Notes: generated by a model not told the origin, from the sequence alone. Numbered from the stretch's first letter, positions 18,157 to 33,987 are shown. The stretch is 64,000 bases of DNA from an uncultured Candidatus Cloacimonadota bacterium (GCA_964573665.1 CAZNKI010000010.1:1883-65882), one strand, 5' to 3'. A program made the numbers and translations.

Positions 18157-18485
18157 AATACCTCACTAAGGTCTTATTTCAGATTAAAAAGATCATCATT
18201 GATTCGCAAAGTCTTGTCAAGCAAAATATTAAATGTATTGTTTTTTTAAGCGCTTGATTATATGTGAACATTAGAGTTTATACACAATATTTTTCTTTGA
18301 TGATGATGTTAATTCTTGAGCAGTAAGCAGAGTAAGTCACCCGCTTGCCAATATTCTTGGGCAGACACACAGGTCAGCCCCTACGGTTTTTCTAATCTAC
18401 AAAAAAATAGTTGATATCAAATATCTCCAAGTGTGATTTTTGGGTTAATAGACACGCATTTTTGCTTATTCACCACAGGTATACG

Positions 18486-18518
18486 CTCGGTTCCGCCTCA
18501 GTTCACCCTCGGTTCAGC
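18486..18518 (+). repeat. Three tandem 11-bp direct repeats
   Basis: CTCGGTTCCGC / CTCAGTTCACC / CTCGGTTCAGC at 18486, 18497 and 18508. GC-rich relative to its surroundings. Confidence 0.8.
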
Positions 18519-18714
18519 TATTTGCTTTATAGTTAATAGATATTTATTGCTGGTTTTCAGAAATAAAAGTATCAACTTTTAATGATTATATGAATGATGT
18601 TTTAAGATTTAGCTGTATGTTTTTAATCATCATTGCTTGTACAAAGATAAAAATATGCAATCAGGTAGATGACGTTAAAAAGTTTAGACAAAGTTGTTCG
18701 CAACATGACGAGTA

Positions 18715-18776
18715 AAAATACTTGATATCAACTAAGACAGCAGGTAGAGGACACGTAAGGGGCACGTAGAGAGTTA
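18715..18776. repeat. Left copy of inverted-repeat element (TTGATATCAA palindrome plus 11-bp-phased GTAGAGG-type units)
   Basis: 18715-18766 is the reverse complement of 39341-39392 at 47/52 positions (manual alignment). Units GTAGAGGACAC / GTAAGGGGCAC / GTAGAGAGTTA at 18744, 18755 and 18766. Confidence 0.85.
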
Positions 18777-19111
18777 ACTATAAAATATTAATAATAATTA
18801 GAGCTTAATTTGGTGAAATAACACTATATGAAGTTTTCTTTATCTTTCTTATTATTTATCATCTGTTTATATATCTGAAAATTACAAAATCAAATTCGTA
18901 AACAGAAAATAAGAGATTTTGCAACCACCTATATTACAGACTTTAAGACACATATTTTGCCTACTTTTTAAAATACTTTATAGAAAAAGGGGAACCCTAT
19001 ATATATAGAGGGGGGATTAAAAAAATATTAAATAACTGATAAGCCATTGATCAATTTATAAAAGACTAATCAGTGAGAAGATTAATTATAATTAGTCGTA
19101 TATAAATTAAT

Positions 19112-22100
19112 ATATCACAACCAATATAGTCTGATTAAAAGAATTATACCGTGAGGGTAAGGGCATCTTTGCAGGTGCGTTTCAATTCCAATATGGTCTG
19201 ATTAAAAGTTTATCGGTCTGCCACCTTCTCGAAAATTCTTAGCAATGTTTCAATTCCAATATGGTCTGATTAAAAGAAACGCACAGGGAGAATTCGCAAT
19301 TGAAGTACCAATGTTTCAATTCCAATATGGTCTGATAAAAAGATAGGAATCCCAAACGCTTGCTTAATGGTTCTTTTAGTTTCAATTCCAATATGGTCTG
19401 ATTAAAAGAACCCATGCCCCAAGATTTTTATCCCACATTACTTTGTTTCAATTCCAATATGGTCTGATTAAAAGCATAGGGCAAGTCAAATCAAATAGTC
19501 TAATAAATGCGTTTCAATTCCAATATGGTCTGATTAAAAGTTCATACTGCAAGACATACATTTGCTACAATGTGCTGTTTCAATTCCAATATGGTCTGAT
19601 TAAAAGCTCCATCCCCGATACATACGAGCCTTATCCAGAAGAGTTTCAATTCCAATATGGTCTGATTAAAAGCACTTACACTCAATTATTTGAAATTTTA
19701 TACTCTAGTTTCAATTCCAATATGGTCTGATTAAAAGAAGCAGGGGAAAAATAAAGAGATGTGAATCTGATGTTTCAATTCCAATATGGTCTGATTAAAA
19801 GCCTGCTTACGAATTGCAGGTTTTGCATTATCTGATTGGTTTCAATTCCAATATGGTCTGATTAAAAGTTTAAAGTAGCAAGATCATTGCTTGTGTTTAT
19901 CGGTGTTTCAATTCCAATATGGTCTGATTAAAAGATAATAGTTTTCACAGTGAAAACGAAGTGAAAACAAAGTTTCAATTCCAATATGGTCTGATTAAAA
20001 GATCTCTGGTCGAATTGTAGGTGTATTATATAACTTTGTTTCAATTCCAATATGGTCTGATTAAAAGCGTAAATGGTTATTTTGTAGGGATAGAGATAAA
20101 ACTGTTTCAATTCCAATATGGTCTGATTAAAAGAAAAAGGTGGTACGGAGAACAAAAAACAAATATGAGTTTCAATTCCAATATGGTCTGATTAAAAGTT
20201 CTGAAGGAACATCATGGAAAGAAGACTCTTGTTGGTTTCAATTCCAATATGGTCTGATTAAAAGGAGAAGAAGATGATGAATCATACCAAGGCTATTGTC
20301 TGTTTCAATTCCAATATGGTCTGATTAAAAGGGGAATCCCGTTGGACTTGATATTGAAGTTATTGACAGTTTCAATTCCAATATGGTCTGATTAAAAGCT
20401 GGAACTTATCAACCTCAATAATCTACACAAACAAGTTTCAATTCCAATATGGTCTGATTAAAAGATCATCTGGCTTTAAAAACGATCTTAAGAAATACGG
20501 GTTTCAATTCCAATATGGTCTGATTAAAAGCCGCGCCGCTTCGCGGCTCGTCGCTTGCCGCGCACGTTTCAATTCCAATATGGTCTGATTAAAAGTTAAG
20601 GGGGTTGACATGCTGATGATTAATGATATAATGTTTCAATTCCAATATGGTCTGATTAAAAGCTAAAAATCAATATAGACAATAGATTACGGTCTAATGT
20701 TTCAATTCCAATATGGTCTGATTAAAAGTGCAGTGAGCGTAAGATAGAAGTCCTTGGAAATATTCAGTTTCAATTCCAATATGGTCTGATTAAAAGTCCG
20801 CGCCGCTTCGCGGCTCGTCGCTTGCCGCGCACGTTTCAATTCCAATATGGTCTGATTAAAAGTTGCTATGCTCGAAAATATGTCTATCCGCGAATCACGT
20901 TTCAATTCCAATATGGTCTGATTAAAAGATGTATGAAATTAATTTGGCAATAAAAAAATTGCAAAAGTTTCAATTCCAATATGGTCTGATTAAAAGAAAA
21001 GTAGTTTATATGCATAAACTTTTTTTAAATTCGTTTCAATTCCAATATGGTCTGATTAAAAGAATCGCATGCTATTGTCATGCCATTTGGCTTATTTAAG
21101 TTTCAATTCCAATATGGTCTGATTAAAAGTCCTATAAAATTGACACAGATCCGGTCTAAACTATGTTTCAATTCCAATATGGTCTGATTAAAAGCTTGCT
21201 CCGATTTGCGTCAATTTGTCGTATTCATATGTTTCAATTCCAATATGGTCTGATTAAAAGCAAATATCATTTCCCCTCCAATTTGTTAAAATATTGTTTC
21301 AATTCCAATATGGTCTGATTAAAAGGCTGGAGCGCTACGATGAGCGCCCCAAAAATACGGTGTTTCAATTCCAATATGGTCTGATTAAAAGAAATAATGA
21401 TTAAAGCACATGGTTTATATGTTACCTGGTTTCAATTCCAATATGGTCTGATTAAAAGGGATTAAAATCAGAATTGATAAAGAAACATTTTATCTGTTTC
21501 AATTCCAATATGGTCTGATTAAAAGCTTTTCAGCATACATCAGAAAGAATTATTTAAAACAGTTTCAATTCCAATATGGTCTGATTAAAAGATTACAAAT
21601 GGGATTTTGACACAATTAAAGAGTTGTAGTTTCAATTCCAATATGGTCTGATTAAAAGTTTTTATTTTAGTAGGCATATTATAAGCCATCATTTAGTTTC
21701 AATTCCAATATGGTCTGATTAAAAGTGCAAATGACATTCAGGTCAATCTTTATGATAAGGTGTTTCAATTCCAATATGGTCTGATTAAAAGCTAGTAGTT
21801 TTATTCTTATTGGTGAGAAAATAGACTAGTTTCAATTCCAATATGGTCTGATTAAAAGGTAAAGTTTGTGGTGGGGAATTTAAATATACATCCAGGTTTC
21901 AATTCCAATATGGTCTGATTAAAAGAATAGATGTAAATATGTCAATGCTACCATAGTCTTAGTTTCAATTCCAATATGGTCTGATTAAAAGAGTAAATTG
22001 CAATCTTTGAATTAAGCAAACTCTTATGTTTCAATTCCAATATGGTCTGATTAAAAGGCTATAATTTTATACAAAAAAAACCCGCTGGAAGGAGGTTTCA

Positions 22101-23244
22101 ATTCCAATATGGTCTGATTAAAAGAGTCGCATAAACAATAAGTACTACCAATTCTGTCGTGTTTCAATTCCAATATGGTCTGATTAAAAGGGTGACCTAC
22201 GGATAGTTTAAATGTGGATGTATCTAGTTTCAATTCCAATATGGTCTGATTAAAAGTAAAGTTTGTGGTGGGGAATTTAAATATACATCCAGGTTTCAAT
22301 TCCAATATGGTCTGATTAAAAGTGTATCGTTTGTAACCAAGAAAAAGGAGTTCTATAAGTTTCAATTCCAATATGGTCTGATTAAAAGGGAGTGATGAAT
22401 AATGAAAATGAACGAGATATATAAGTTTCAATTCCAATATGGTCTGATTAAAAGATTATTTGAACTATACCTGTTGATGTACCACTTTTAAGTTTCAATT
22501 CCAATATGGTCTGATTAAAAGATAAACAAACTATATCAAGGTAATTGCCTTGATGTAAGTTTCAATTCCAATATGGTCTGATTAAAAGATTAGATGCTGT
22601 TGTCAAATCTAAATTAACAGCCGTTTCAATTCCAATATGGTCTGATTAAAAGTGAAGTTCCACCCCCAATAATACCTGTATGGATACAGTTTCAATTCCA
22701 ATATGGTCTGATTAAAAGTGACAAAGAATTTATTAGAAATAGAATGAAAGAAAGTTTCAATTCCAATATGGTCTGATTAAAAGGAATTTGTGAGAGAGAT
22801 TCTCTGGCAGGTGCTTAACAAGTTTCAATTCCAATATGGTCTGATTAAAAGTGTTATCAAGTTTAATCATTCTTTCAACAATTACTGTTTCAATTCCAAT
22901 ATGGTCTGATTAAAAGAGGTTCTGAAATAGAGTTTATAGAGGCTAAAAACAAGTTTCAATTCCAATATGGTCTGATTAAAAGATTTGTGTATCAGTAACA
23001 AATCTACTTGAACTATCCGTTTCAATTCCAATATGGTCTGATTAAAAGTAAGTGCCATAATATTAAATATACAAGCAGATGCGGTTTCAATTCCAATATG
23101 GTCTGATTAAAAGCCTTACACTTTCAGTTAAGCGAAAGTAAAGGGCAATGTTTCAATTCCAATATGGTCTGATTAAAAGTTTAATAGAAGTTATTATAAT
23201 AAATCGGCTGATCTGTTTCAATTCCAATATGGTCTGATTAAAAG
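19112..23244 (-). CRISPR. Type I-B CRISPR array: 62 full repeats plus 1 degenerate terminal repeat, 62 spacers
   Basis: 30-bp repeat GTTTCAATTCCAATATGGTCTGATTAAAAG, first full copy at 19179 and last at 23215. Degenerate copy at 19112-19141. The third full repeat carries T to A at 19337. Spacers are 34-38 bp. The reverse complement ends in ATTGAAAC (I-B 5' handle), so transcription runs on the minus strand from the cas2-proximal leader. Confidence 0.97.
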
Positions 23245-23503
23245 CCTCACACTATATTGGGCAAATTACTGATTGATAATTATAATGTCAATCAAAATTT
23301 CAATGTTTTTTGCGTCGATCATAAATGATGCAAAAACCCCATACTATCGACGATTAGCTATCTGTAGCTAAATACATCGTCATTTGCCAGTTTTATTCTC
23401 ACTCTATGATGATGTGAAGATCACTATAAAAGAATAATCGACGATGTTAATCATTTTGAGTATCATTGAAAATCATTTATTTCTATCTATACTCAACAAA
23501 TAA
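23245..23503 (-). promoter_or_regulatory. CRISPR leader
   Basis: AT-rich 259-bp non-coding stretch between the cas2 stop and the first (newest) repeat. Repeat decay at the opposite end of the array fixes the polarity. Contains three ATCGACG(AT) motifs. Confidence 0.7.
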
Positions 23504-23767
23504 TTATATAATATTATCAAAGGGATTGAAACTCTTACCTACAAATACTTTCTTAAATTTTGCATTGTAAGAAAATTCAAAGAATAAAACAGAATCTATA
23601 TCCGAATCGATGATGTCTCTCACTTCATTTTTAAGCCTTGTAAGTGCAGCCTCATTGATATCTCCTTCAAAGACACTCAGTTGAATCCATGTAAGATATT
23701 TGCGAAATATTTTGAGCACCTTACCAACTCTTTTTTCATTTATATCATACATCGCGATTACATGCAT
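23504..23767 (-). CDS. cas2: CRISPR-associated endoribonuclease Cas2
   Basis: ~87 aa from ATG 23767 (MHVIAMYDINEKRVGKV...). Typical Cas2 N-terminal beta-strand with Asp. Immediately follows cas1. The listed start at 23779 is a TTG. Confidence 0.85.
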   Translation of the reverse strand: MHVIAMYDINEKRVGKVLKIFRKYLTWIQLSVFEGDINEAALTRLKNEVRDIIDSDIDSVLFFEFSYNAKFKKVFVGKSFNPFDNII

Positions 23768-23769
23768 TG

Positions 23770-24762
23770 TTACCACCAAATCCTAAATGCTTTATATTCA
23801 TTATTTTCAATTAAGTATTTAATTAATTTATAACATTCCAGTCTGATTAGATGTCGATAAGATACATTCCTATTCAGTGTTCGATGTTTAATAGTTGTAT
23901 TTAGTTGATCATCAAATTCTTTAATGAGAATTTTCTTTGCTTTATCTTTCATAAAACAAAAGTTTAGTTCTGTGTCAAAATCACTTTCTGTAATCATGTT
24001 TTTATTTAAAACTCTGAATATAATTCTATCAACAAGAATCGGTTTAAAGATTTCAGAAATATCCAATGCTAATGAATATCTTCTATATCCAGGTTTATGT
24101 AAAAAGGATATTGTTGGATTAAGCTGTGTTTGATAAATTTGAGATATGGTTGAAGTATATAATAATGAATTGCCAAAAGAAATTAAAGTGTTAATCATAT
24201 TATCGGGTGGTCTTTTAACTCTTTTATTGAAGTTGATTTCTTGATTGATTATTATGTTAAAAGTTGAATAATAAGTTTGGCGGATTTGACCTTCAATACC
24301 CATGATCTCTTCTACTGAATTACACTCAGGTAGTTTTGATTTTAATTTCTTGATTTCATTTAAAAATTCTTCTAATTCTTTGCCTCTTGATTGATAATAT
24401 AGAAGATTTTTAATAATATTATTAACTGCAGCATCAATGGTTTCTCTTGCAATTACAAGCTGTTTTTTAGAATTTGTGAACGCTTTTACTTGCTCAACTA
24501 AAACAAAACCAGATAGTAAACTCTCTTTGGGATAATAACTTCCAGAATAAAATCCATAATAGTTGAATATATGAAGAACAATTTCATTTTGCGACAAGAA
24601 GTTTAATAGTTTTGTGTTTAAACTGATCTCTCCAAATAAAAATAGAGATCTAATAGTTTCAATGGGGATTACTTTTTTTTCGTTAGCTTCATTGATGATA
24701 AAAATAGTATTATCCTGTCTTTTCATTGATCCACTAGAACATATAAAATAGTCTCTTTTCAT
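23770..24762 (-). CDS. cas1: CRISPR-associated endonuclease Cas1
   Basis: 330 aa. Conserved Cas1 blocks NTLISFGNSLLYT and LHKPGYRRYSLALDISEIFKP. Lies between cas4 and cas2. Confidence 0.93.
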   Translation of the reverse strand: MKRDYFICSSGSMKRQDNTIFIINEANEKKVIPIETIRSLFLFGEISLNTKLLNFLSQNEIVLHIFNYYGFYSGSYYPKESLLSGFVLVEQVKAFTNSKKQLVIARETIDAAVNNIIKNLLYYQSRGKELEEFLNEIKKLKSKLPECNSVEEIMGIEGQIRQTYYSTFNIIINQEINFNKRVKRPPDNMINTLISFGNSLLYTSTISQIYQTQLNPTISFLHKPGYRRYSLALDISEIFKPILVDRIIFRVLNKNMITESDFDTELNFCFMKDKAKKILIKEFDDQLNTTIKHRTLNRNVSYRHLIRLECYKLIKYLIENNEYKAFRIWW

Positions 24763-24768
24763 ATCACC

Positions 24769-25278
24769 TCATTCTATATAACATAGTTCATAGTAGCTAC
24801 ATTGTTCACAAAAGGACTTATTAATCTGCTTAGGAATATTATCATTAATAATAATTGCTTTTATTTTTATAATATGGTTTTCAAGATCGTCAATATCTTT
24901 ATCAGAAAGATATACAGTTTTTTTTTTACGCAATTTTGGATAATCTAATTCTCCTATAAGGTTATCAATGCCAAGATTTCTCAAATAATAAATATAATAC
25001 TTTAATTGCCAAATATGTGCTTTTTCCATTTTAGGTGATTTTTTTATTTCATGTATGATCCCTTCGTTATCAAAGAAATCAATTTTTATTGGACCAATTT
25101 CAATCTCTTTTTTCTCTCTTTGATATGAATCTTCATGAAGAATCTTACCTAGTTCAACAAGCTCTGAGTTGCTTTCCATATTAATTTGATGAGCAAAATA
25201 CCATAATTCACGATGACAAGTGAAATAATAATTTAACATTGTGCCAGTAATAAAGAGGTTTTCATTTAAACTCATCAT
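24769..25278 (-). CDS. cas4: CRISPR-associated exonuclease Cas4 (RecB-like, 4-Cys cluster)
   Basis: 169 aa. N-terminal Cys (FTCHRELWY) plus C-terminal CEQCSYYELC. PD-(D/E)xK core (IDFFD...IHEIKKS). Confidence 0.9.
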   Translation of the reverse strand: MMSLNENLFITGTMLNYYFTCHRELWYFAHQINMESNSELVELGKILHEDSYQREKKEIEIGPIKIDFFDNEGIIHEIKKSPKMEKAHIWQLKYYIYYLRNLGIDNLIGELDYPKLRKKKTVYLSDKDIDDLENHIIKIKAIIINDNIPKQINKSFCEQCSYYELCYIE

Positions 25279-27572
25279 TAGAATATCTCTCCCGCAATAT
25301 CTGTATTAATAACTTCTTTTAGTAATCCTAACTCGGCATTATATTCCAATTTAGCTGTAATTGTTTTAATAACTTTGTCATTAGTCAAATCTACTGTACT
25401 GTGGCTAGAAATCAAATTTTTATTTCTATAATATCCATAGGTGTTTTTATGTATTGAGACAAATAATCCTTCTGCTTCGATATAATGATGATTGTTTATT
25501 AATTCTTCCCACTCTTTAATAAAACAGAAAGGGAGTATTTCAACATTAGTAAATTGCTCATAAAATTGTTCTTCGGTAGTTGAAGAATCTTGGTAGGGTT
25601 TTAATGAGTAAATTGCTTGATTGAAAAAATGAGAAGTATCATCAAATTTCTTTTTTTCTTCTGGTTCCCAATCAGGATATACTAGGTCGATTAATGATTG
25701 TATTGTTGATTCGGAGAGAGTATCAATATCTTTTAACACATCTAGTGTTTTCTTTACTATAGCAGTGGGGTAGATGAAATGATCGTTTTTCCCCGATATA
25801 GTACAGATTTTTACTGTGCATATTCCTTTTTTTCTTTCACGATTAATTCGTCCAAACCGTTGAAGTAGCGCATCAATAGGTGCAGGTTCGGAATATAAAA
25901 CATCGTAGTCTATATTTAAACTTACCTCAATAGCCTGAGTTCCAATGAGTAATCGGGTTTTAGGATCAAGTGCTTTTTCTTCTTTTTTCTGTCTATCTTT
26001 ATATGTGAATCGTGAGTGTAAAAGACATATTTCATCTTGTTGATATTGTTCATTACAAAAATATTGAAAGATTTTTTGCGCATTATTTACCGTATTACAG
26101 ACAACTAAAACTCGTTTCCCTTGCGATAAATCATAATTAATACGATCAATCTGATTTTCAATGTTAGATTCTACTAATTGGATTTTGTGCCTTGTAAAAA
26201 TTTTAAGCAGATCTTGATCAGCCTCAATTATTTGTGATGATTCTAACTGAAGAACCTCAGATATTATTTTTTTTATAAAGCTTGGTAAGGTCGCGGTCAT
26301 AACAAAGATATCTGCTTTTAATGAATTTGTTAAAAATTTCATTACTTCAAGTATTTGCGCAAAAGTAATCGAATCATAGGCATGGATCTCATCAAAGATC
26401 ATTTTACATCCAGCTAATTCTATCAATCCCATCTCAAAATGCTTCACTCCATAGAAATGTTTAAGGAATTGAAAAGGCGTTGTTATCTTTATAGGATTGA
26501 TCATTTTTAAGAATTCTTCTTTATCATTTCTGATCAGCTCATGAACATTATGAGTTTCTGATTGTGAATATTGTGAATAAAGAAATTGATTTAATCGAGA
26601 GTGATGTAAACCAACCTTGTCTTCAAAAATTAGTTTTAATCTTAGGTACATGGCATTGATTGAAGCAGTATAGGGCAATACATAAAATGATCGCCCTTGT
26701 TTGATTGAAAGTTGTGTTTGTAACCAGAGTAAAGCTGCTTCAGTTTTTCCTGAACCAGTAGGAGCTGATAATTGAACAGATCCTTTTGATTTACTGGCTT
26801 TTAATTGATGGTTATAGAAATCCATTCCTTTTTCAAGAAGAGTTGATCGCATTTGATCAAGAGGAGAAAAATCATTATCTATTAGCATTTTTAATGATTT
26901 AACTCCAGCAGAAGCATAATGATCACAAGTTTTTAATCCTCCCCATATTAATAAGTTTTGCATGGAGCCTTCATTTTCCCATTCTTTTCTTAAATATGGG
27001 ATCGCGTATTGTTTAACTGGGTGTATGATGCCATCTAAATTTATCGATTTCAATTCAATTGCTTTTCCATAAACTCTTTGATAAATTTGAGGGAACACAT
27101 GGAAAAACTGTTTAAGATATTCGGATATCATTTTTGTTTTGATATTTGCTTCAAAATTATTATCTTGATCATAGTATCCTAAAGCTTCTTCAAATGTCTT
27201 GTGATGCGATAATATGGTGTACTTTATACATTTAAGCGTGTTTTCTGGACAAGCAATCTTATCAACAAAGGGTAAAGAATAAAACTCATGCCTTTGGTTG
27301 TTCCAATGATTGTTTTGACCTTGTAATAATTTCTGAAACTCTCTATGAACTTTTCCTAAATCATGAAAGCAAATTATAATGAATAATGATTCCCAATAAG
27401 AGAATGGCTGGAAATAGTATTGGATTATGTCATTTAGTTGAGGAATGGATTCTACCATAGAATTCAAGATATTAAAGCATTCGGTGATATGTTCATCCAG
27501 ACTTTTCCCATCTGATTTAGCTAAGACCGATTGATCTATATCAAGAAGCATTTTCCTTAAATCCCCAGACAT
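25278..27572 (-). CDS. cas3: CRISPR-associated helicase/nuclease Cas3 (HD domain plus SF2 helicase)
   Basis: HD region (FHDLGKV, ILSHHK). Helicase motif I APTGSGKTEA, motif II FDEIH, motif VI LQRFGRINR. Start is uncertain: ATG at 27572 or 27551; the listed 27581 is a TTG. Confidence 0.9.
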   Translation of the reverse strand: MSGDLRKMLLDIDQSVLAKSDGKSLDEHITECFNILNSMVESIPQLNDIIQYYFQPFSYWESLFIIICFHDLGKVHREFQKLLQGQNNHWNNQRHEFYSLPFVDKIACPENTLKCIKYTILSHHKTFEEALGYYDQDNNFEANIKTKMISEYLKQFFHVFPQIYQRVYGKAIELKSINLDGIIHPVKQYAIPYLRKEWENEGSMQNLLIWGGLKTCDHYASAGVKSLKMLIDNDFSPLDQMRSTLLEKGMDFYNHQLKASKSKGSVQLSAPTGSGKTEAALLWLQTQLSIKQGRSFYVLPYTASINAMYLRLKLIFEDKVGLHHSRLNQFLYSQYSQSETHNVHELIRNDKEEFLKMINPIKITTPFQFLKHFYGVKHFEMGLIELAGCKMIFDEIHAYDSITFAQILEVMKFLTNSLKADIFVMTATLPSFIKKIISEVLQLESSQIIEADQDLLKIFTRHKIQLVESNIENQIDRINYDLSQGKRVLVVCNTVNNAQKIFQYFCNEQYQQDEICLLHSRFTYKDRQKKEEKALDPKTRLLIGTQAIEVSLNIDYDVLYSEPAPIDALLQRFGRINRERKKGICTVKICTISGKNDHFIYPTAIVKKTLDVLKDIDTLSESTIQSLIDLVYPDWEPEEKKKFDDTSHFFNQAIYSLKPYQDSSTTEEQFYEQFTNVEILPFCFIKEWEELINNHHYIEAEGLFVSIHKNTYGYYRNKNLISSHSTVDLTNDKVIKTITAKLEYNAELGLLKEVINTDIAGEIF

Positions 27573-28231
27573 TCTTGCCAATATATATCAATAGATGATT
27601 TACTGAAGTTACTAATTAATTCTGGATCATTTATTCCTTTGCTTTTTAATTGAACTCCTTTTTTTATATGAGAATCTACGATGTAAAAGGGGATTGTTTG
27701 TTGAGATTTTCGAGGTATTTCATCAGAAAAGCATATGGGTAAAGCTTGAATTGGCGCAGGAATCTGATGTTTTTTAAAGGGGATTATTGTCCCCCTTATA
27801 TTGGAAAGGACATCAATTTCATCGGTTTCCATTTCTGTGATTTTATCAACTCTTGCCAAATCACCGCTTCTACCTAAAAGCAATGGAAATACTGGATTTT
27901 TGAAGTAATCTGAGACTTCTTTTGTATTAGTATATAAATATAGTTGGCAATAAAAGAAGAGTTCTCTTTTTACAATATTGGAATTACCACTATTTGTTTG
28001 GTGCTCTTTTTGATAAATTGTCTCAACATCCCAAGCGGAGGTATCATAGTTAAAATAATAACCTAATTTTAACATTTCATCAGGATGATATAGATCACCC
28101 TTAGCAGCAGAGATTAACCCAAATATTGTTGAGAGAGGAGGAGCTTTTAAAGAAGGCTGGACTCCACTGACAATATTCGGATATCTAAATGAAGCCGTCC
28201 AGCTACTCAGTGATATTTTATATATTCGCAT
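27557..28231 (-). CDS. cas5: Cas5 (type I-B RAMP)
   Basis: 224 aa. N-terminal SLSSWTASFRYPN...PPLSTIFGLISAA pattern typical of Cas5. Positioned between cas7 and cas3. Confidence 0.8.
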   Translation of the reverse strand: MRIYKISLSSWTASFRYPNIVSGVQPSLKAPPLSTIFGLISAAKGDLYHPDEMLKLGYYFNYDTSAWDVETIYQKEHQTNSGNSNIVKRELFFYCQLYLYTNTKEVSDYFKNPVFPLLLGRSGDLARVDKITEMETDEIDVLSNIRGTIIPFKKHQIPAPIQALPICFSDEIPRKSQQTIPFYIVDSHIKKGVQLKSKGINDPELISNFSKSSIDIYWQECLGI

Positions 28232-28234
28232 TTT

Positions 28235-29245
28235 TTAATCCATTATATCAAGTACTGATTGAGTAAATGAGTCAATAATTCTATTAACAGGTCCAAATAC
28301 TATTTTCCCTTCATCATTCATTTTTTTCAGCTCTTCATTGAGTTCGTCCATAAAGCCTTCTCTTTTACCAATATATACATTTTCCTTAAAGAAATCATGA
28401 TACTCAAAGATAATTTCTTCTAAAGCCTTTATTGAGAAAACAGGTTTATCTAATTTTTCTTTAATGATATGTGAAAAGGGGTGATTGGCACTTTTCATTT
28501 TTACTAAGACAATAAGCTTTGGTGTTACATCAGCATAGTTTGTAGTCAATTTTGCTCCTCCACTTATTACTTTAAGCGCTTTTAGCGTATCTTCAATTCT
28601 CTTTTTTCTTATCTCAATAGGGAGTCTAAAGAGTTTAGTTGTTTTTTCTGAATTATATGGATCTTGAATTTCTATTGCTCCATTTTCTTTTGCTTTTTTA
28701 ATAAGAGCTTCGTTGATGTTTTTGTAACCAGTACGATTAGAGTCAGAAAATGTTCCTATTTGATCTGCTGAAAGAGAAAACAAACCTTTTAGTACTGCTG
28801 AATATTCATCTTTTCCATAAGGTACAGGATCTCCATCGCTTCTTCCCATAACTGAAAAATTATGAGCGATTGGATTGTATCCTACTCCAATAAGAGCAGA
28901 ATTTTTTAGAGGAGAATTCCTTGTTAATGTACCACCTTCAGCTGCTTTTGCAGCTCGCATATAACCAAAAATGTCATCATCTGAGTATTCTATAGGATCT
29001 GCTTTAGTATAAGCAATCTTGCTATCTCTTGTTATTGGTGATAATTTCCATTTGAAAGAATTTTCTAGTGTTTCTCTCCACCAATATCTCCAAGCCTGGC
29101 CTGAAATGTAAGGATATTGTTTTCCATTTCTTCTAATTTTCTTGGTAACAGTAGCATTGTCAGATACTGCAGTTTTTTCACTTCCTGCATTATTTAAGGC
29201 AGCAACATCAACATCAATTACAACTAATCCTTGAATATTTAGCAT
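28235..29245 (-). CDS. cas7: Cas7 (type I-B backbone subunit, Cst2/Csh2-like)
   Basis: 336 aa. N-terminal VVIDVDVAALNNAGSE motif typical of Cas7. Position in the operon. Confidence 0.8.
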   Translation of the reverse strand: MLNIQGLVVIDVDVAALNNAGSEKTAVSDNATVTKKIRRNGKQYPYISGQAWRYWWRETLENSFKWKLSPITRDSKIAYTKADPIEYSDDDIFGYMRAAKAAEGGTLTRNSPLKNSALIGVGYNPIAHNFSVMGRSDGDPVPYGKDEYSAVLKGLFSLSADQIGTFSDSNRTGYKNINEALIKKAKENGAIEIQDPYNSEKTTKLFRLPIEIRKKRIEDTLKALKVISGGAKLTTNYADVTPKLIVLVKMKSANHPFSHIIKEKLDKPVFSIKALEEIIFEYHDFFKENVYIGKREGFMDELNEELKKMNDEGKIVFGPVNRIIDSFTQSVLDIMD

Positions 29246-29253
29246 TTCTCCTC

Positions 29254-30657
29254 CTAATATTCTTTCACTTCTTGTTCATCTGGTATCTCGATATCATTAT
29301 TATCAATTTCAATTCTTAAATTTTCTTCATGCATTTTTTCATAGAGATAAATAAGCATTAAGTCTCGAATTTCTGACCAGTATTGCCCATCTGGAAATAA
29401 ATAATTCACATAATCATCCAGCGTAATTAAAGGATCCTGATTCCCTTTTTGATAATTTTTTTTGATCAATAAGAGAATGACTCTTCTTAATTCATGAGCT
29501 GTTTTTGTTGATTCTAACTGGGTTAATACTCTTTTTTGGTCATTGTTTTCTTGCATCATTACAAAAATACTGTTAGTAATTGCTTTGAGTATGTTTATGG
29601 TTTTTGTTTGCATATCTAATACCTCCGTAATATATAGATAGATAATTTCGCTTTTTAATACTGATTTTTTGTTTTGATATTGATGTTTTGCATCATTTCG
29701 AATATAGGATAAGATACTTTTTTCATTTATAAGATTATGAATTATAGTGTTATAAGAGTTTTCGATAATCTCTTCAGATATTTTTATTTGTCTTTTATCC
29801 ACCCAATTATTATTTTCATTATTCCATGTGGCTTTTGATACTTTATAATATTTATAAATGAATTGATTCCAATCGCTTCTTAACTTTGCTTTTGACATTT
29901 TGTATAAGAATGTATATATATTTGAAGGGAGATTGATGATATCAATTTGAGGAGATGTGGCAAAGTTTGAAAAACTATTTATTGTTATATTTTCTGTTGG
30001 ATTTTCTTTGTCAGTATCTATAAATAAATCGATTAATTCTCCAGCTACTTTAATAATCGCATTATTTGGATTTTTGATTGCAGGAGAGAGAAAACCACCT
30101 TTCAGGTTTGTTCCAAAATATTTATTATAATTGTTTGAAATAATTTTATTTTTTATATAAATTCTTATGCCTTCGCTATTGGGTTGTAGAAGAATCAAAT
30201 TTTTACCCTGATATGTTGCCAAAGGTGCGAGAAATATTGCAGTAAGACAATCAGCACATAGCATAAATCCCTTTTCCAGAGCATGGTGGAAATTAACATA
30301 AGTATTCGAACCGCATAAACAATAATTATCTCTTCCCGTAGGGCTTAGATGTTTCATTTGACCACAAATTCTGCAATAACCACTTTCTAACATTGAGTTA
30401 TAGATTGTCTCCGTATAGTATGTTATTGTTTTACTTGTTTTTTTTTCAACAGTATTGTTAGTCTTATGAGTTATTGTAGAATTAAGAAAAAAGCTATGAA
30501 GTTTGCCTTCCCAATTTACTACATACACTTTAGTCACCATAGTAATAAGTTCATTGAGCGATTTATTTGGGTTTTTCTCTTGAAGAAATTCGAGAACTAA
30601 GCGACCATTATCAACAAAGGGATCACCTGTTACATGATCATTATAATTATTTTTCAT
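29254..30657 (-). CDS. cas8b: Cas8b-like large subunit (type I-B)
   Basis: 467 aa. Sits between cas6 and cas7 as expected for the I-B large subunit. Cys-rich segment CRICGQ...CLCGS...CADC. Assignment rests mainly on position. Confidence 0.65.
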   Translation of the reverse strand: MKNNYNDHVTGDPFVDNGRLVLEFLQEKNPNKSLNELITMVTKVYVVNWEGKLHSFFLNSTITHKTNNTVEKKTSKTITYYTETIYNSMLESGYCRICGQMKHLSPTGRDNYCLCGSNTYVNFHHALEKGFMLCADCLTAIFLAPLATYQGKNLILLQPNSEGIRIYIKNKIISNNYNKYFGTNLKGGFLSPAIKNPNNAIIKVAGELIDLFIDTDKENPTENITINSFSNFATSPQIDIINLPSNIYTFLYKMSKAKLRSDWNQFIYKYYKVSKATWNNENNNWVDKRQIKISEEIIENSYNTIIHNLINEKSILSYIRNDAKHQYQNKKSVLKSEIIYLYITEVLDMQTKTINILKAITNSIFVMMQENNDQKRVLTQLESTKTAHELRRVILLLIKKNYQKGNQDPLITLDDYVNYLFPDGQYWSEIRDLMLIYLYEKMHEENLRIEIDNNDIEIPDEQEVKEY

Positions 30658-31459
30658 CTTGTCTCCTTAATAAGTCAACGCATCCCATTCCAGCACTATT
30701 TTTGTCTCCAAAACCACATTCATAGCCAATTTTAATCAATTCAGGATAAGTCTCAATTGTAAAAGGTCCTTCAAAACATTTAATCTTTTCATTATTTTTA
30801 AAGTGAATCAATTTGCTAATTCTCCCACCGGCTTTAACAATATAATTTGGATCAAATGAAAAGTTAAAGAGGATTGGCTGATTCCAGTTTTCAGAGAAAA
30901 TCGTCTTATATTTTTGACAAAGATTATTATAGAGATTAATCTTAAAATGATCTCTTTCTTCAGGATTCATATAATCTAAAAAGTGTTGCTGAAGCTTTCC
31001 ATCGATTTCTTGCATAGTGGACATTGAAATAGGAGAAAGGCATGAAAATGTCATACGGTTTTGATATTCAATTTCTGGCAGTACTTCTACTTCGCTGATC
31101 ATCATTTTTAAAGTATGAGTTTTAAAATTTAAAACTAATATATTGTCTGTAAAAATTCCAAGAACAATATTTTCAAATATTCTATCAACATTGGTAGATA
31201 AAATAAGAGATGCTTTTTTTACATTTCGAAAACCATGCTGATCTTTATGAATTGTAGTAAAGTTATCAAGAAGTAGCTTTGAAAAGGTGAAAAATTTAAA
31301 AACTCTTAAATCGTTATGATATCCCTCATTATGAAGAAAATCTGAGAATAGTGGCTCTGCTTTATTTAAGGTGTTGTATATAGCAGAATGTAATTGATAA
31401 TTATAATTGTATGGAATAAATGACTTGTCTTGAAGAAGAAAATTAATTTTTAATCTCAT
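30647..31459 (-). CDS. cas6: Cas6 crRNA endoribonuclease
   Basis: ATG 31459 (MRLKINFLL) is preceded by AGAGG; the listed 31486 start is a TTG. C-terminal Gly-rich loop GFGDKNSAGMG typical of Cas6. Confidence 0.8.
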   Translation of the reverse strand: MRLKINFLLQDKSFIPYNYNYQLHSAIYNTLNKAEPLFSDFLHNEGYHNDLRVFKFFTFSKLLLDNFTTIHKDQHGFRNVKKASLILSTNVDRIFENIVLGIFTDNILVLNFKTHTLKMMISEVEVLPEIEYQNRMTFSCLSPISMSTMQEIDGKLQQHFLDYMNPEERDHFKINLYNNLCQKYKTIFSENWNQPILFNFSFDPNYIVKAGGRISKLIHFKNNEKIKCFEGPFTIETYPELIKIGYECGFGDKNSAGMGCVDLLRRQDEK

Positions 31460-31525
31460 AAAAACCTCTTGCTGTAAAAACTTCAATGTTTTTCAAAAAA
31501 TAAGACTTTTTTATACACATCGTCA

Positions 31526-31554
31526 TTTTTATTCTAAGCTTTTTTAATTGTCAA
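31526..31554 (-). promoter_or_regulatory. Candidate sigma70-type promoter for the cas operon
   Basis: On the minus strand: TTGACA (31554-31549), 17-nt spacer, TAAAAA (31531-31526), ~65 nt upstream of the cas6 ATG. Weak -10; the host promoter consensus is unknown. Confidence 0.25.
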
Positions 31555-31633
31555 GTTTTTTTATAAAAATATCAGTATTTTATATTATTTTTTTCATTAT
31601 TATATGATTGTTCCTATAAATATCTCCCTACCT

Positions 31634-31724
31634 GCGGGGCTTATGATTTAGGGGTGTCTTTACTGTAAACTGCTCTATACTTGTTTACTGTTGCAATTCT
31701 TATATTCTCAAGCCCCGCTTGGGG
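31634..31724. repeat. GC-rich nested inverted repeat / possible structured element upstream of cas6
   Basis: GCGGGGCTT (31634-31642) is complementary to AAGCCCCGC (31710-31718). Inner GTAAAC (31665-31670) pairs with GTTTAC (31683-31688). A competing local hairpin CCCC-GCTT-GGGG lies at 31713-31724. Confidence 0.6.
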
Positions 31725-31783
31725 TGAAAGAAAAAACGCCATCGGGTAGATTTTACTAAATATTACGCAAGACCACACTGTCA

Positions 31784-31911
31784 GCTACCAAGATGTCAGG
31801 ACTACGTCCCTAAAATATTGAAAATTTGATATAGCTACCAAGATGTCAGGACTACGTCCCTAGATAAGGAATGATTATTCATTGCTATTAAGATGTCAGG
31901 ACTACGTCCCT
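31784..31911. repeat. Mini-array: 3 x 28-bp direct repeat with an exact 50-bp period and 22-bp unique spacers
   Basis: GCTACCAAGATGTCAGGACTACGTCCCT at 31784 and 31834; GCTATTAAGATGTCAGGACTACGTCCCT at 31884. Spacers are AAAATATTGAAAATTTGATATA and AGATAAGGAATGATTATTCATT. Confidence 0.9.
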
Positions 31912-32002
31912 TTCTTTTTCAATTAAGTAAGCAGGGATACTTGCTTAACAATAATCGTATCTTTGATAGTTGTAAAGATGTAGAAATATGGTGGGTTTAA
32001 AA

Positions 32003-32032
32003 GTAAAAAACCCGGCGTGAAGCCGGGTTTTT
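32003..32032 (-). terminator. Rho-independent terminator downstream of the DEAD-box helicase gene
   Basis: CCCGGC (32011-32016) / GCCGGG (32022-32027) stem flanked by A6 and T5. On the minus strand the stem is followed by TTTTTT. Confidence 0.8.
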
Positions 32033-32037
32033 GATAT

Positions 32038-33987
32038 TTATTCAGAATCAGTTTTCTTTTTAAAACGTCGATTTGGTGGATTTGAGTCTCTGTCTCTATC
32101 GCGATAACTCGGTTTTTTCTGAGATGGATCTTTAGTTTTGTCCGAATAACTTCTTTTTATTGGTTCTGCATCACCTGATGAAGAGTTTCTATAATCAGAA
32201 TAGTTTCTTTTTCTTGGTTCAGCATCGTTTGATGATGAGTTTCTTGAATCAGAATAGTTTCTTCTTCTTGGTTCAGCATCGTTTGATGATGAGTTTCTTG
32301 AATCAGAATAACGATTGTCACGTCTTCTTGGGGCTTGATCATCATCTCTTCGTGAACGGTAGCCATCTCTTTTTGAGCGTGATTGGTCACGAGGATCATC
32401 CTGAGAAATTTCAACATGGATTCTTCTGCCTTGATATTCTTTCCCCTTGAAAGAATCGAGAAGTGTTGGTGTAAAATTCTGATCAATTTCAAAGAATGAG
32501 AAATATTGTAAAATCTTAATCTTACCAATAGGAATTGAGCGTTGTTGTGTATATTCATTGATTAGTGAGATCAAATCAGGAGGAGTTAAATCGTCTTTTC
32601 TGCCAAGATTGATAAACATTCTTTCATACTTTTGCACAGAATTTTTTGCTGAGTGATCAAAGGCATTAATATCTTTTGAATCTTTATAATAATCAAGAAA
32701 ACGATTAAACTCAATAGATACGAATTTTTTGATCAGTTCTTCACGATCAAGCCATTCCAATTTTTTATAGATCATTGGAAGGAAAGAATCAATCTCTGTT
32801 TCATTAACGTCGATTTTTTCAATACGATCAATCTGGTGGAAAAGTTGTTTTTCACATACTTCTCTTCCAGTGGGTACTTTTTTAAAAGTGAACTGTTTTT
32901 TGATCTGTTGTTCAATGATCTGGATTTTTCTTTTTTCTTTCAGGTGGGCAATAACAATTGATATTCCCTTTTTACCAGCACGACCTGTTCTACCGCTTCT
33001 GTGCGTATAAACTTCAAGTTCATCTGGGATATTATAATTGATAATATGTGTAAGATTGTCCACATCAATACCACGAGCAGCCACATCTGTTGCAACAAGT
33101 AAGCTAAGGTGACCACTACGGAATTTTCCCATGACGTGATCTCTTTGATTTTGAGAGAGGTCTCCATGAAGTGCATCAGCATTGTAAGAGTCTTTCATTA
33201 ACTGTTCTGCGATATCCTGTGTTTCCTGGCGAGTACGGCAAAAAACAATACCGTAAATATTGGGATAATAATCCACGATGCGCTTTAATGCTGAATAACG
33301 ATCACGCGCCTGAACCATATAGCATTCATGACTAATACCTTCAGCGCCAGAATTCTTTGTGCCGATACCGATCTGTTGGAACGATTTTAAATATTTACGA
33401 GCTATTTCAAGCACTTCATTTGGCATGGTCGCAGAAAACATCAGGGTTTTCTTTGATTCTGGAGTGTCGGCTAAAATAATTTCAAGATCTTCTCTAAAAC
33501 CCATTGCCAGCATTTCATCTGCTTCATCAAGTACTAAAGTGGTAATCTTTGAAAGATTAACTTCTTTACGATTCATAAGGTCGATCAGACGTCCTGGAGT
33601 AGCGACAACGATTTGTGCTCCTTCTTTTATCACTCTGATCTGACGTTCAATGTTTGCACCGCCGAAGATTGCAGCGACTTTGATTCCATTGACAAATTTG
33701 GAATAGGTAGAGATATCATCTGCTACCTGTAAACACAATTCACGCGTTGGACACATGATCAGATGCTGAATCATTCTCTTGTGAGTGTCCGTATTTTCAA
33801 TAATTGGAAAACCAAAAGAAGCTGTTTTCCCTGTTCCTGTCTGTGAAGTGACAATCAAATCTCCTTCACTTTGCCCTAATAAGTGAGGAATAACCTTTTC
33901 TTGCACAGGCGTAGGTTCGACAAAACCTAATTCATCTATGGCTTTTAAGATTTCCTCTCTTAAGTTCATTTCGTTAAAACTTAACAT
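32038..33987 (-). CDS. deaD: DEAD-box ATP-dependent RNA helicase (DeaD/CsdA-like) with DbpA-type RNA-binding domain and R/S/D-rich repeat tail
   Basis: Q-motif (FVEPTPVQ), motif I SQTGTGKT, motif II DEAD (VLDEADEM), SAT, motif VI HRSGRTGRAG. C-terminal DbpA-like region. Low-complexity tail with 18-aa repeats. Confidence 0.9.
   Translation of the reverse strand: MLSFNEMNLREEILKAIDELGFVEPTPVQEKVIPHLLGQSEGDLIVTSQTGTGKTASFGFPIIENTDTHKRMIQHLIMCPTRELCLQVADDISTYSKFVNGIKVAAIFGGANIERQIRVIKEGAQIVVATPGRLIDLMNRKEVNLSKITTLVLDEADEMLAMGFREDLEIILADTPESKKTLMFSATMPNEVLEIARKYLKSFQQIGIGTKNSGAEGISHECYMVQARDRYSALKRIVDYYPNIYGIVFCRTRQETQDIAEQLMKDSYNADALHGDLSQNQRDHVMGKFRSGHLSLLVATDVAARGIDVDNLTHIINYNIPDELEVYTHRSGRTGRAGKKGISIVIAHLKEKRKIQIIEQQIKKQFTFKKVPTGREVCEKQLFHQIDRIEKIDVNETEIDSFLPMIYKKLEWLDREELIKKFVSIEFNRFLDYYKDSKDINAFDHSAKNSVQKYERMFINLGRKDDLTPPDLISLINEYTQQRSIPIGKIKILQYFSFFEIDQNFTPTLLDSFKGKEYQGRRIHVEISQDDPRDQSRSKRDGYRSRRDDDQAPRRRDNRYSDSRNSSSNDAEPRRRNYSDSRNSSSNDAEPRKRNYSDYRNSSSGDAEPIKRSYSDKTKDPSQKKPSYRDRDRDSNPPNRRFKKKTDSE
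32162..32323 (-). repeat. Three tandem 54-bp coding repeats in the helicase tail
   Basis: Units begin at 32162, 32216 and 32270 (GGTTCAGCATCGTTTGATGATGAGTTTCTTGAATCAGAATAGTTTCTTCTTCTT). They encode RRNYSDSRNSSSNDAEPR-type 18-aa repeats. Confidence 0.9.

Follow-up and report, generated by a model that had tools for sequence, protein, structure and literature searches.

Three phased copies of a 28-bp repeat beside a type I-B CRISPR-Cas operon in a Cloacimonadota bacterium, tentatively interpreted as recognition sites for a host factor

Results

The deaD-cas6 intergenic region

The window analysed here, a stretch of 64,000 nt from an uncultured Candidatus Cloacimonadota bacterium (GCA_964573665.1 CAZNKI010000010.1:1883-65882), carries three closely related 28-bp units between deaD and a type I-B CRISPR-Cas locus. 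The flanks are as the preliminary description gave them, with the deaD terminator on one side and cas6 on the other, the latter heading a type I-B operon (cas6-cas8b-cas7-cas5-cas3-cas4-cas1-cas2) that is followed by a leader and then by a CRISPR array on the minus strand. The array comprises 63 repeats and 62 spacers of 34-38 bp (mode 36), with a cognate repeat of 30 bp (CTTTTAATCAGACCATATTGGAATTGAAAC on the transcribed strand); its terminal degenerate repeat (19141-19112) is followed by about 870 nt of non-coding DNA and then by mlaD. The features of the intergenic region, in minus-strand order, are:

33987-32038, minus strand: deaD, at the upstream end of the minus-strand order
32006-32032, no strand: bidirectional intrinsic terminator of deaD, 11-bp stem, conserved in a relative (contig L004)
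31884-31911, no strand: unit C (TT type), 26/28 identical to the 28-mer, with two changes CC->TT
31862-31883, no strand: linker B-C, 22 nt, containing the breakpoint of a CRISPR-less allele
31834-31861, no strand: unit B (CC type), 28-mer with 0 mismatches
31812-31833, no strand: linker A-B, 22 nt, 9% G+C, unrelated to linker B-C
31784-31811, no strand: unit A (CC type), 28-mer with 0 mismatches
31525-31554, minus strand: best cas6 promoter-like site (TTGACA, 18 nt, AAAAAT; 10/12)
30647-31459, minus strand: cas6, 270 aa from the ATG at 31459, with Cas6 domains

The spacer from the terminator to cas6 measures 546 nt in minus-strand order. A distance of 95 bp separates the triple from the terminator, the cas6 promoter-like site follows 230-357 bp downstream of the triple, and the unit edges are 127-254 nt past the deaD stop codon; promoter-like sites are no commoner in the deaD-cas6 region than in shuffled sequences. 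The Cas proteins lack close relatives (identity drops to 41% for the next Cas8b and to 38% for the next Cas6 among GTDB genomes), and exact-protein look-ups with DeaD and with the TTG-start form of Cas6 returned nothing. Named homologues of DeaD and Cas8b are suggestive of a Cloacimonadota host. The CRISPR-Cas block was examined for a candidate gene of a DNA-binding protein, and only cas genes were identified. GC skew across the window was uninformative.

Conserved units and unrelated linkers

The 28-mer (GCTACCAAGATGTCAGGACTACGTCCCT), of which 0 copies are expected in dinucleotide shuffles of the window, was found at 31784, 31834 and 31884 with 0, 0 and 2 mismatches, respectively, in agreement with the three copies originally reported. 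The reported 50-bp period was recovered by TRF (period 50, 2.6 copies) and is undisturbed by any indel across the triple. The sequences between the copies are unique, as had been claimed: the linkers match at only 9/21 and 6/21 positions, which is the background level for such AT-rich DNA, and their G+C content is 9-23%, compared to 54% in the units. Identity between units A and B extends to 30 nt (31783-31812 = 31833-31862) and unit C matches over 28 nt only, such that the linker length is 22 bp, or 20 bp with the unit counted as 30 bp; the extra identical base on either side of units A and B may be due to chance in AT-rich DNA. Given that 50 bp correspond to 4.8 helical turns (at 10.5 bp per turn), the unit sites lie only roughly on one face of the helix. 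On its two sides the triple is accompanied by half-copies and by partial duplications that look like slippage products (ACCACACTGTCAG at 31772, ATAGTTGTAAAGATGT at 31966). An independent Logan contig (L001) is identical to the window across the whole deaD-cas6 spacer, including the triple, which is therefore not an assembly artefact.

A solo copy of the motif at a second locus

The preliminary description placed a fourth copy 31 kb away, and this copy is real:

507-527, no strand: solo copy, matching the unit at 20/21 positions over its first 21 nt, between convergent nitroreductase and hybrid histidine-kinase genes

Beyond position 527 the similarity is lost, and within the copy a 17-nt core is exact, compared to an expectation of 0.07. 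The solo copy has the same sense as the triple units, and its distance from the neighbouring stop codons is 14 nt on the nitroreductase side and 44 nt on the kinase side; in minus-strand terms, each motif locus is situated just 3' of a gene (the kinase gene and deaD, respectively). The convergent spacer was searched for an intrinsic terminator, and none was detected. Scanning the window at up to 8 mismatches revealed no copies other than the triple and the solo copy, and the similarity of a degenerate relative previously listed at 18373-18386 turned out to be at chance level. In the roughly 72 kb of sequence that is readable for this species, there are two motif loci only. Samples containing the species include SRR10083293-96, SRR15311598, SRR29554093 and SRR27460537. 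The exact 21-nt pattern of the motif (GCWAYYAAGATGTCAGGACTA) had 0 matches in the GTDB reference genomes (596 Gb) and one match in the JGI metagenomes, which falls inside a coding region and is probably due to chance. The core and both linkers had no exact match in IMG/VR, and a BLAST search of the triple region against phage and plasmid collections produced no match; a missing viral or plasmid match is common even for genuine spacers.

The solo locus is identical to the window in three other contigs of the same species. In a relative with an 84% identical kinase (contigs L090 and L091), the orthologous spacer reads AAGATATCAAGGCTA, which matches 12/15 positions of the solo core (513-527); the site differs by 3 substitutions and an 18-nt gap that removes the GCAACCA part. 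Because the relative retains 12/15 of the core at the orthologous place, the motif is host-chromosomal and not a foreign CRISPR sequence. From this alignment, the solo copy is vertically inherited in part, its core being vertically transmitted host sequence and not an insertion, and, judging from the match itself, the triple units and the solo copy share ancestry or constraint. The drift of the solo site in this relative, which lacks the block, against 20/21 identity here suggests, from a single comparison, that the units and the solo copy are under joint constraint. An apparent homology of the solo locus to the whole 50-nt units looked suggestive and was rejected after shuffle tests (p = 0.15 and p = 0.05).

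The units are unrelated to the CRISPR repeat

The loose resemblance of the 28-mer to the cognate repeat that had been pointed out did not hold up: the best local alignment (CCAAGATG against CCAATATG) is unremarkable relative to shuffles (p = 0.38), and 74% of random 28-mers from the window score equally. For crRNA-like mini-arrays, the published criterion is at least 16 nt matching the cognate repeat in BLASTN (Shmakov et al., PMC10120712); with the published parameters, the 28-mer units yielded no match to that repeat. The handle is not conserved, as the preliminary description noted, with 4/8 matches between the 8 nt that close the unit on the transcribed strand (TTGGTAGC) and the cognate handle (ATTGAAAC), and the linkers are indeed shorter than cognate spacers (20-22 bp vs. 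34-38 bp in 62/62 spacers).

It had also been proposed that the units give rise to repeat-derived RNAs of the CreA/CreR type, in which case the 28-mers would be processed by Cas6 and the 22-nt linkers would guide Cascade to the cas6 promoter or another promoter. The location is typical, and type I-B mini-arrays targeting the cas6 promoter have been described (PMC10120712). In CreA/CreR-type mini-arrays, the upstream pseudo-repeat retains the 8-nt 5' handle, and the pseudo-spacer shows partial complementarity, starting with the seed, to the promoter of a cas or toxin gene beside a PAM. Linker A-B is complementary at 17/21 positions to 31562-31582, just upstream of the cas6 -35 box, and linker B-C matches 15/16 positions at 27378-27393. 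However, these matches are AT-rich, no complementarity to the cas6 or other promoters exceeds chance, the linker A-B target has seed mismatches, and the best matches of this linker in the window are at chance level; equally good linker matches occur in coding DNA. Together with the missing repeat similarity, the 4/8 handle, the linker length and a better candidate next to the triple (31624-31719; see below), these results make a CreA/CreR-type origin of the triple highly improbable.

Comparison of the 62 spacers with the 28-mer and with the solo site for self-targeting revealed nothing beyond chance. We also considered the upstream spacer as a decayed second CRISPR array and rejected this possibility, repeat-like k-mers not being enriched (p = 0.07-0.18). 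Among 80 distant I-B loci, the search for arrays like the triple upstream of cas6 recovered nothing but tandem repeats of the ordinary kind, conserved over their full length. The CRISPR interpretation of the triple is therefore wrong, and it is no array of the CRISPR type. Identical repeats separated by unique spacers beside cas genes are insufficient to call CRISPR derivation; in the present case, ordinary host sequence makes up the repeat, and it is the adjacent element to which the published Cre criteria point.

The adjacent structured element

This element adjoins the triple and is not part of it. Its components are:

31620-31725, no strand: structured element, 9-10-bp outer stem (GCGGGGCTT / AAGCCCCGC) around an inner hairpin
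31719-31690, minus strand: psiR1, pseudo-repeat with handle ATTGCAAC
31689-31654, minus strand: psiS, pseudo-spacer of 36 nt
31653-31624, minus strand: psiR2, second pseudo-repeat

The element is enclosed by a perfect 9-bp stem and folds far better than shuffled sequences on both strands (z = -4.6, 0/200 shuffles). BLASTN identified only two repeat-like pieces in the deaD-cas6 spacer, namely, 31985-32003 (16/19), which abuts the terminator and is missing in the relative L004, and 31690-31709 (15/20), which on the transcribed strand reads ...GAATTGCAAC and matches the handle at 7/8 positions. Exactly 36 nt after psiR1 follows CCCTAAATCATA, which matches the repeat start at 8/12 positions, and the psiR1-psiS-psiR2 arrangement ranks among the top 8 of the 596,290 position/gap combinations in the window. 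The seed of psiS has an 11/15 match within the cas6 promoter, directly after the -35 box (at 31548, flanked by ACA; p about 0.04), with mismatches at seed positions 2 and 7. The case is post hoc and marginal; even at that, 31624-31719 (minus strand) agrees with more of the Cre criteria than the 28-mers do and is a weak but better candidate for a CreR-like mini-CRISPR.

RNA structure and coding potential of the triple

A small hairpin (GGAC-TAC-GTCC) previously assigned to the unit does not withstand comparison to shuffles. The stem is only 4-5 bp, with minimum free energies of -3.5 and -4.6 kcal/mol, and the z-scores of the unit and of the 150-nt triple on either strand are -0.07, +0.23, -0.69 and +0.06, the first two being those of the unit; the solo copy lacks the hairpin, and the unit is non-palindromic, without dyad symmetry. 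Because neither the unit nor the triple folds better than shuffled sequences, a structured RNA is excluded. Even at E <= 10, no Rfam family matched the triple region apart from terminator look-alikes. The longer segment 31740-32040 gives z = -3.5 on the plus strand, largely due to the terminator, and z = -1.9 on the minus strand. A Csr/Rsm-type sponge, with GAUGU-CAGGACU-ACGUC forming a hairpin with a GGA loop, was rejected given that no Rfam family matched, that the fold pairs GGAC with GUCC and that the solo copy keeps neither hairpin.

Every unit contains ATG TCA GGA CTA; in units A and B this reads MSGLRP-stop, and in unit C it starts a frame of 35 aa, which stops 5 nt short of the terminator. 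A coding role was rejected in the face of a missing ribosome-binding site and of a 50-bp period that is not divisible by three. Likewise, a type III toxin-antitoxin system (ToxI-like) was rejected, with only 28/50 nt conserved and with cas6 as the downstream gene instead of a toxin endoribonuclease.

Gain and loss of the CRISPR-Cas block

Two contigs without the CRISPR-Cas block define the following segments of the window:

~18245-31998, no strand: CRISPR-Cas block absent from contig L004, comprising the triple, the cas operon, the array and the ~870 nt of trailing non-coding DNA
18605-31872, no strand: segment missing in the CRISPR-less allele L095, which has lost units B and A, the cas operon and the array and has kept unit C

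In the closest relative that we found (Logan contig L004, with a 93% identical DeaD), deaD is followed by 196 nt and then by mlaD. Homology to the window stops just past the terminator (about 31999), which is the last sequence that the two have in common on the deaD side (32006-32032), and resumes at about 18244; thus, the whole CRISPR-Cas block, including the triple, is lineage-specific. The G+C content of the block is 0.29-0.31 vs. 0.35. The central part of the L004 spacer has no significant homology to the sequence on either side of the block, and the deaD-side junction was accordingly set right after the terminator.

The second contig (L095) belongs to the same species, is seen in 4 samples and retains, of the three units, unit C alone. 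It starts with exactly 30 nt that consist of the tail of unit C and the first 10 nt of linker B-C, continues with a 6-nt filler and rejoins the window at about 18604, from where it runs on into mlaD, which puts the breakpoint between 31873 and 31872, after the tenth base of linker B-C on the minus strand. Since 30 nt is the k-1 overlap of a k = 31 assembly graph, the start of the contig would be a branch point. The spacing from C to B equals that from B to A exactly, indicating that the three-unit state came first, and on this sequence comparison L095 most plausibly arose by deletion. That unit C survives in this allele is by itself no proof of a cas-independent function. The absence of the block in a 93% identical relative, combined with a deletion allele within the species, should be useful for studies of CRISPR-Cas gain and loss.

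The 13.3-kb variable segment was considered as a transposon or integrated element and rejected (no terminal inverted repeats and no significant flanking direct repeats), as was an apparent degenerate unit at its right boundary (p = 0.05; 11% of random tiles score equally). A transposon end of the Tn7/Mu type was similarly rejected: the ends show no inverted or direct similarity above chance, only cas genes are present, the breakpoint separates unit C from unit B, and beyond the triple there is further sequence of repeat-like and hairpin character.

Interpretation of the triple

The triple may be classed as a tandem recognition-site array or a short interspersed repeat. For units to be alike at an indel-free period, with linkers at background identity, sequence and spacing must both be constrained, or else the insertion process must work with a ruler. 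The interpretation that we prefer, tentatively and with a probability of about one in three (0.35), is that the three phased units are recognised by a host factor acting in trans, for which a DNA-binding protein is the likeliest candidate. A protein that binds DNA is the first choice because the spacing is conserved and the linker sequence is not; the constraint on spacing, as far as the sequence goes, points to cooperative DNA binding. Under this interpretation, one sequence-specific host factor would recognise both the triple units and the solo site; the protein would occupy the three phased sites together and would separate deaD from the cas operon as a platform or insulator, and the solo site would serve the same factor at a second locus. 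One of the readings in the preliminary description, a repeated operator, would in a version of this kind fit the strict phasing and the freely drifting linkers. Selection, rather than recent copying, would keep the units alike, even though recent copying could also yield the identity of A and B; the factor would be a protein that recognises DNA, and it might affect the transcription of cas6 or deaD. The triple is a small, lineage-specific and probably functional motif array. Several observations run against this assignment: full identity over 28 nt exceeds a typical operator and comes without dyad symmetry, the solo site lies between convergent genes, with no promoter there to regulate, the block encodes no candidate binding protein, the sites share a face of the helix only roughly, promoter-like sites are no commoner than in shuffles, and the triple was not found in any related genome. 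The units were also compared to dif/Xer, attC and Ter-like sites, which were rejected as no dyad arms or core motifs are present.

Should the triple serve as a binding platform or for RNA pairing, the upstream margin of a type I-B CRISPR-Cas locus would have a further, uncharacterised level of control or insulation, and this in the poorly studied phylum Cloacimonadota.

The alternative that fares best, although it is unlikely, places the triple at the RNA level, as a pairing or sponge platform in which the three unstructured 28-mers would be single-stranded sites of a non-coding RNA, either a plus-strand RNA of ~420 nt that is divergent from cas6 and ends at the terminator, or a long minus-strand leader. 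Such an RNA would pair with the transcript in which the solo sequence is present as its complement (a plus-strand RNA with the kinase 3'UTR, a minus-strand RNA with the nitroreductase 3'UTR), or else would act as a decoy of the solo site and titrate the RNA or RNA-binding protein that recognises it. The 20/21 identity suits base-pairing better than a protein site, the solo site is close to both stop codons, and the CC->TT changes of unit C would maintain G-U pairing if a plus-strand RNA is active. The unstructured repeats are situated between the structured 5' domain (31620-31725), a hairpin and the plus-strand terminator with its U-run, and weak plus-strand promoter-like sites are present at 31560-31608; however, promoter matches are at background level, and the stronger plus-strand folding of 31740-32040 comes mostly from the terminator. 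Exactly equal linkers are needless for an RNA sponge, no Rfam family (CsrB, Rsm and others) was matched, GGA is in a stem and not in a loop, and neither candidate hairpin is kept in the solo copy. If true, this explanation would tie the CRISPR-Cas block to the locus of a host two-component kinase.

Rather less credible is an inert, low-copy interspersed repeat or recombination by-product, that is, a host sequence that was copied to a few intergenic sites and amplified locally, with no role in CRISPR, in which case the cluster would be at most a recombination-prone spot. The presence of the motif at two unrelated loci, both just downstream of minus-strand genes, the flanking half-copies, the breakpoint of the CRISPR-less allele inside the cluster and the failure to find the motif in the relatives and public collections searched are all compatible with such an origin. 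On the other hand, neutral tandem duplication should leave the linkers as alike as the units, which they are not; the ends of the variable segment have no flanking or terminal inverted repeats above chance, and the solo core is vertically inherited, with no insertion. A REP-like dispersed element, one of the readings offered in the preliminary description, is borne out in part: the solo copy is located in a spacer unrelated to cas and is partly vertical, and copy C persists in the CRISPR-less allele, whereas the motif is neither palindromic nor structured, forms no stable hairpin and is confined to two loci in ~72 kb, with 0 matches in 596 Gb.

We give little credence to a broader proposal in which the adaptation module, or an integrase with a 28-30/20-22 ruler, built a non-cognate CRISPR-like array, or in which a cas-linked RNA platform pairs with a host 3'UTR; either of these would add a new type of accessory element to the margin of a type I-B locus.

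It is very unlikely that the triple arose as a neo-CRISPR array, by off-target integration of Cas1-Cas2(-Cas4) beside a host 28-mer, each event duplicating a repeat-length stretch. Hallmarks of CRISPR are present in that the repeats are identical, the spacers are unrelated but constant in length and the period is exact, the 30-nt identity of A and B equals the cognate repeat length exactly, the outermost unit C is degenerate like the distal end of real arrays, and the same locus contains an active-looking adaptation module and a 62-spacer array; off-target integration that spawns arrays has been reported in E. coli, as far as the account in bioRxiv 10.1101/148544 goes (citing Nivala et al. 2018). 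However, the inserts are 20-22 bp vs. 34-38 bp, and the Cas1-Cas2 ruler should stay fixed; the linkers have no match in the IMG/VR, phage and plasmid collections, no correctly oriented leader-like motif was recognised by eye beside unit A, and the 30-nt identity depends on the two extra A/B bases, which may be fortuitous.

Comparison with known systems

Like CreA/CreR and the crRNA-like mini-arrays (bioRxiv 10.1101/2023.03.10.532045; PMC10120712), the triple is located upstream of cas6 in a I-B locus and combines short repeats with short unique sequences, and its linkers fall within the 15-60 bp spacing that the published mini-array pipeline accepts (bioRxiv 10.1101/2023.03.10.532045; PMC10120712). 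It differs from CreA/CreR in that it has three equal copies instead of one good and one degraded repeat, and linkers of 20-22 nt instead of about 36, with no seed-plus-PAM target above chance; furthermore, its 'repeat' also occurs as ordinary host sequence elsewhere. With neo-CRISPR arrays, as these are presented in bioRxiv 10.1101/148544 (citing Nivala et al. 2018), the triple shares inserts of fixed length and the position next to an adaptation module, and perhaps the duplication of a repeat-length stretch (30 nt for units A and B), and it departs from that account in its 20-22 bp inserts without a leader-like anchor or a matched source. The several GGA motifs (UCAGGAC) upstream of a plus-strand intrinsic terminator are reminiscent of Csr/Rsm sponges, from which the triple is distinguished by the lack of an Rfam match, by GGA in a stem and by a conserved unit that far exceeds a CsrA site.

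The dRS3/NIME arrays of Neisseria consist of conserved short repeats that alternate with non-conserved sequence. As with REP/BIME and dRS3/NIME elements, the motif is extragenic, lies downstream of genes, occurs at more than one locus and coincides with a recombination breakpoint, and the cluster is NIME-like. Unlike those elements, the motif has no palindrome or stable stem-loop, all copies are direct, the copy number is very low, and no associated transposase or integrase is visible.

Tandem arrays of protein sites with a conserved core and free linkers include the 43-bp sopC repeats of plasmid F, iterons and the three spaced TnsB sites at the left end of Tn7. Although no partition, replication or transposition gene is found near the triple, no inverted set is present at the other end of the block and the allele breakpoint is within the set of sites and not outside it, the triple resembles these arrays in its direct, non-palindromic cores of ~20-30 bp, in its fixed spacing and variable linkers, and in the arrangement of three sites over ~150 bp.

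Structured element near the cas6 promoter

We identified a structured element on the cas6 side of the triple (the 28-mer units A, B and C, 31784-31911), within which a pseudo-repeat (psiR1), a pseudo-spacer (psiS) and a second pseudo-repeat (psiR2) can be delimited:

31620-31725, 106 nt: strongly structured element that separates the triple from the cas6 promoter
31719-31690, minus strand: psiR1 of a candidate mini-CRISPR
31689-31654, minus strand: psiS of the same candidate
31653-31624, minus strand: psiR2 of the same candidate

The element folds into an inner hairpin inside a perfect 9-bp outer stem (arms GCGGGGCTT / AAGCCCCGC), with a folding z-score of -4.6 on both strands, and none of the 200 shuffled sequences was as stable. 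On sequence grounds, 31620-31725 is also readable as a degenerate mini-CRISPR. The psiR1 handle, ATTGCAAC, matches the crRNA handle at 7 of 8 positions, psiS has the modal spacer length of the array (36 nt), the piece of psiR2 downstream of psiS matches the repeat at 8 of 12 positions, and the psiS seed has an 11/15 match within the cas6 promoter, adjoining ACA; the mini-CRISPR statistics of the element each reach only p ~0.04 and are post hoc.

A motif shared by the leader and the cas6 5' region, and a repeat-like piece at the block edge

The CRISPR leader and the cas6 5' region have a motif in common:

23310-23286, minus strand: AAAAACATTGAA(A/G)TTTT motif in the CRISPR leader
31493-31477, minus strand: the same motif in the cas6 5' region

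The two copies agree over 17 nt with one mismatch and include ATTGAA, with which the crRNA handle begins. The leader copy lies immediately upstream of the leader TTGACA box, and the second copy falls within the cas6 5' untranslated region, where 31480-31514 gives a sub-threshold match to Rfam CRISPR-DR65. This motif may represent a shared regulatory site or what is left of a repeat. A repeat-like piece, AATATGGTGGGTTTAAAAG at 31985-32003 (16/19 match to CRISPR repeat positions 12-30), lies at the CRISPR-Cas block junction, directly adjoining the terminator of deaD. L004, the closest relative found, which lacks the block, does not have this piece, possibly a remnant of a repeat at the block edge; over the whole deaD-cas6 spacer, repeat-like k-mers showed no enrichment.

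Presence and absence of the CRISPR-Cas block

CRISPR-Cas presence or absence is polymorphic at two depths, corresponding to ~18245-31998 in comparison with L004 and ~18605-31872 in comparison with L095, a CRISPR-less allele of the same species. In L004 (DeaD 93% identical) the entire block is absent, and L095, with contigs from four samples, carries a 13.3-kb internal deletion with a 6-nt filler. The following stretch lies past the array:

18245-19112, ~870 nt: AT-rich, between the array's degenerate terminal repeat and the mlaD promoter

It contains no ORF of >=50 aa and no Rfam match, and its proximal ~360 nt are nearly unchanged in L095.

Reading frames, solo-copy spacer and deaD tail

31893-32000, plus strand: 35-codon frame MSGLRPFLFQLSKQGYLLNNNRIFDSCKDVEIWWV, with its ATG within unit C
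494-570, 77 nt: spacer separating the convergent genes for the nitroreductase and the hybrid histidine kinase
32144-32310: tandem repeat (54-nt unit, 3.1 copies, 90% matches) inside the deaD 3' end

The 35-codon frame ends 5 nt short of the plus-strand terminator and is probably not translated, because it has no Shine-Dalgarno sequence. Units A and B have the same ATG, followed by a stop after 6 codons, and the frame of the solo copy spans 12 codons. Compared with the sister species, the spacer holding the solo copy contains 18 inserted nucleotides, and no intrinsic terminator was found in it on either strand. The tandem repeat encodes the repetitive C-terminal tail of DeaD, which is probably why an exact-protein look-up returned no other gene with exactly this product.

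Comparison with distant I-B loci

In Poribacteria and other distant I-B loci (L010-L089), the repeats are very similar (e.g., CTTTTAATCGAACCATTGTGGAATTGAAAC), with Cas6 identity of only 31-39%. Where the array lies inside the fetched stretch (e.g., L010, L013, L026, L076 and L089), cas6 adjoins it. In L080, a sequence resembling the repeat (23/30) lies 33 nt upstream of cas6.
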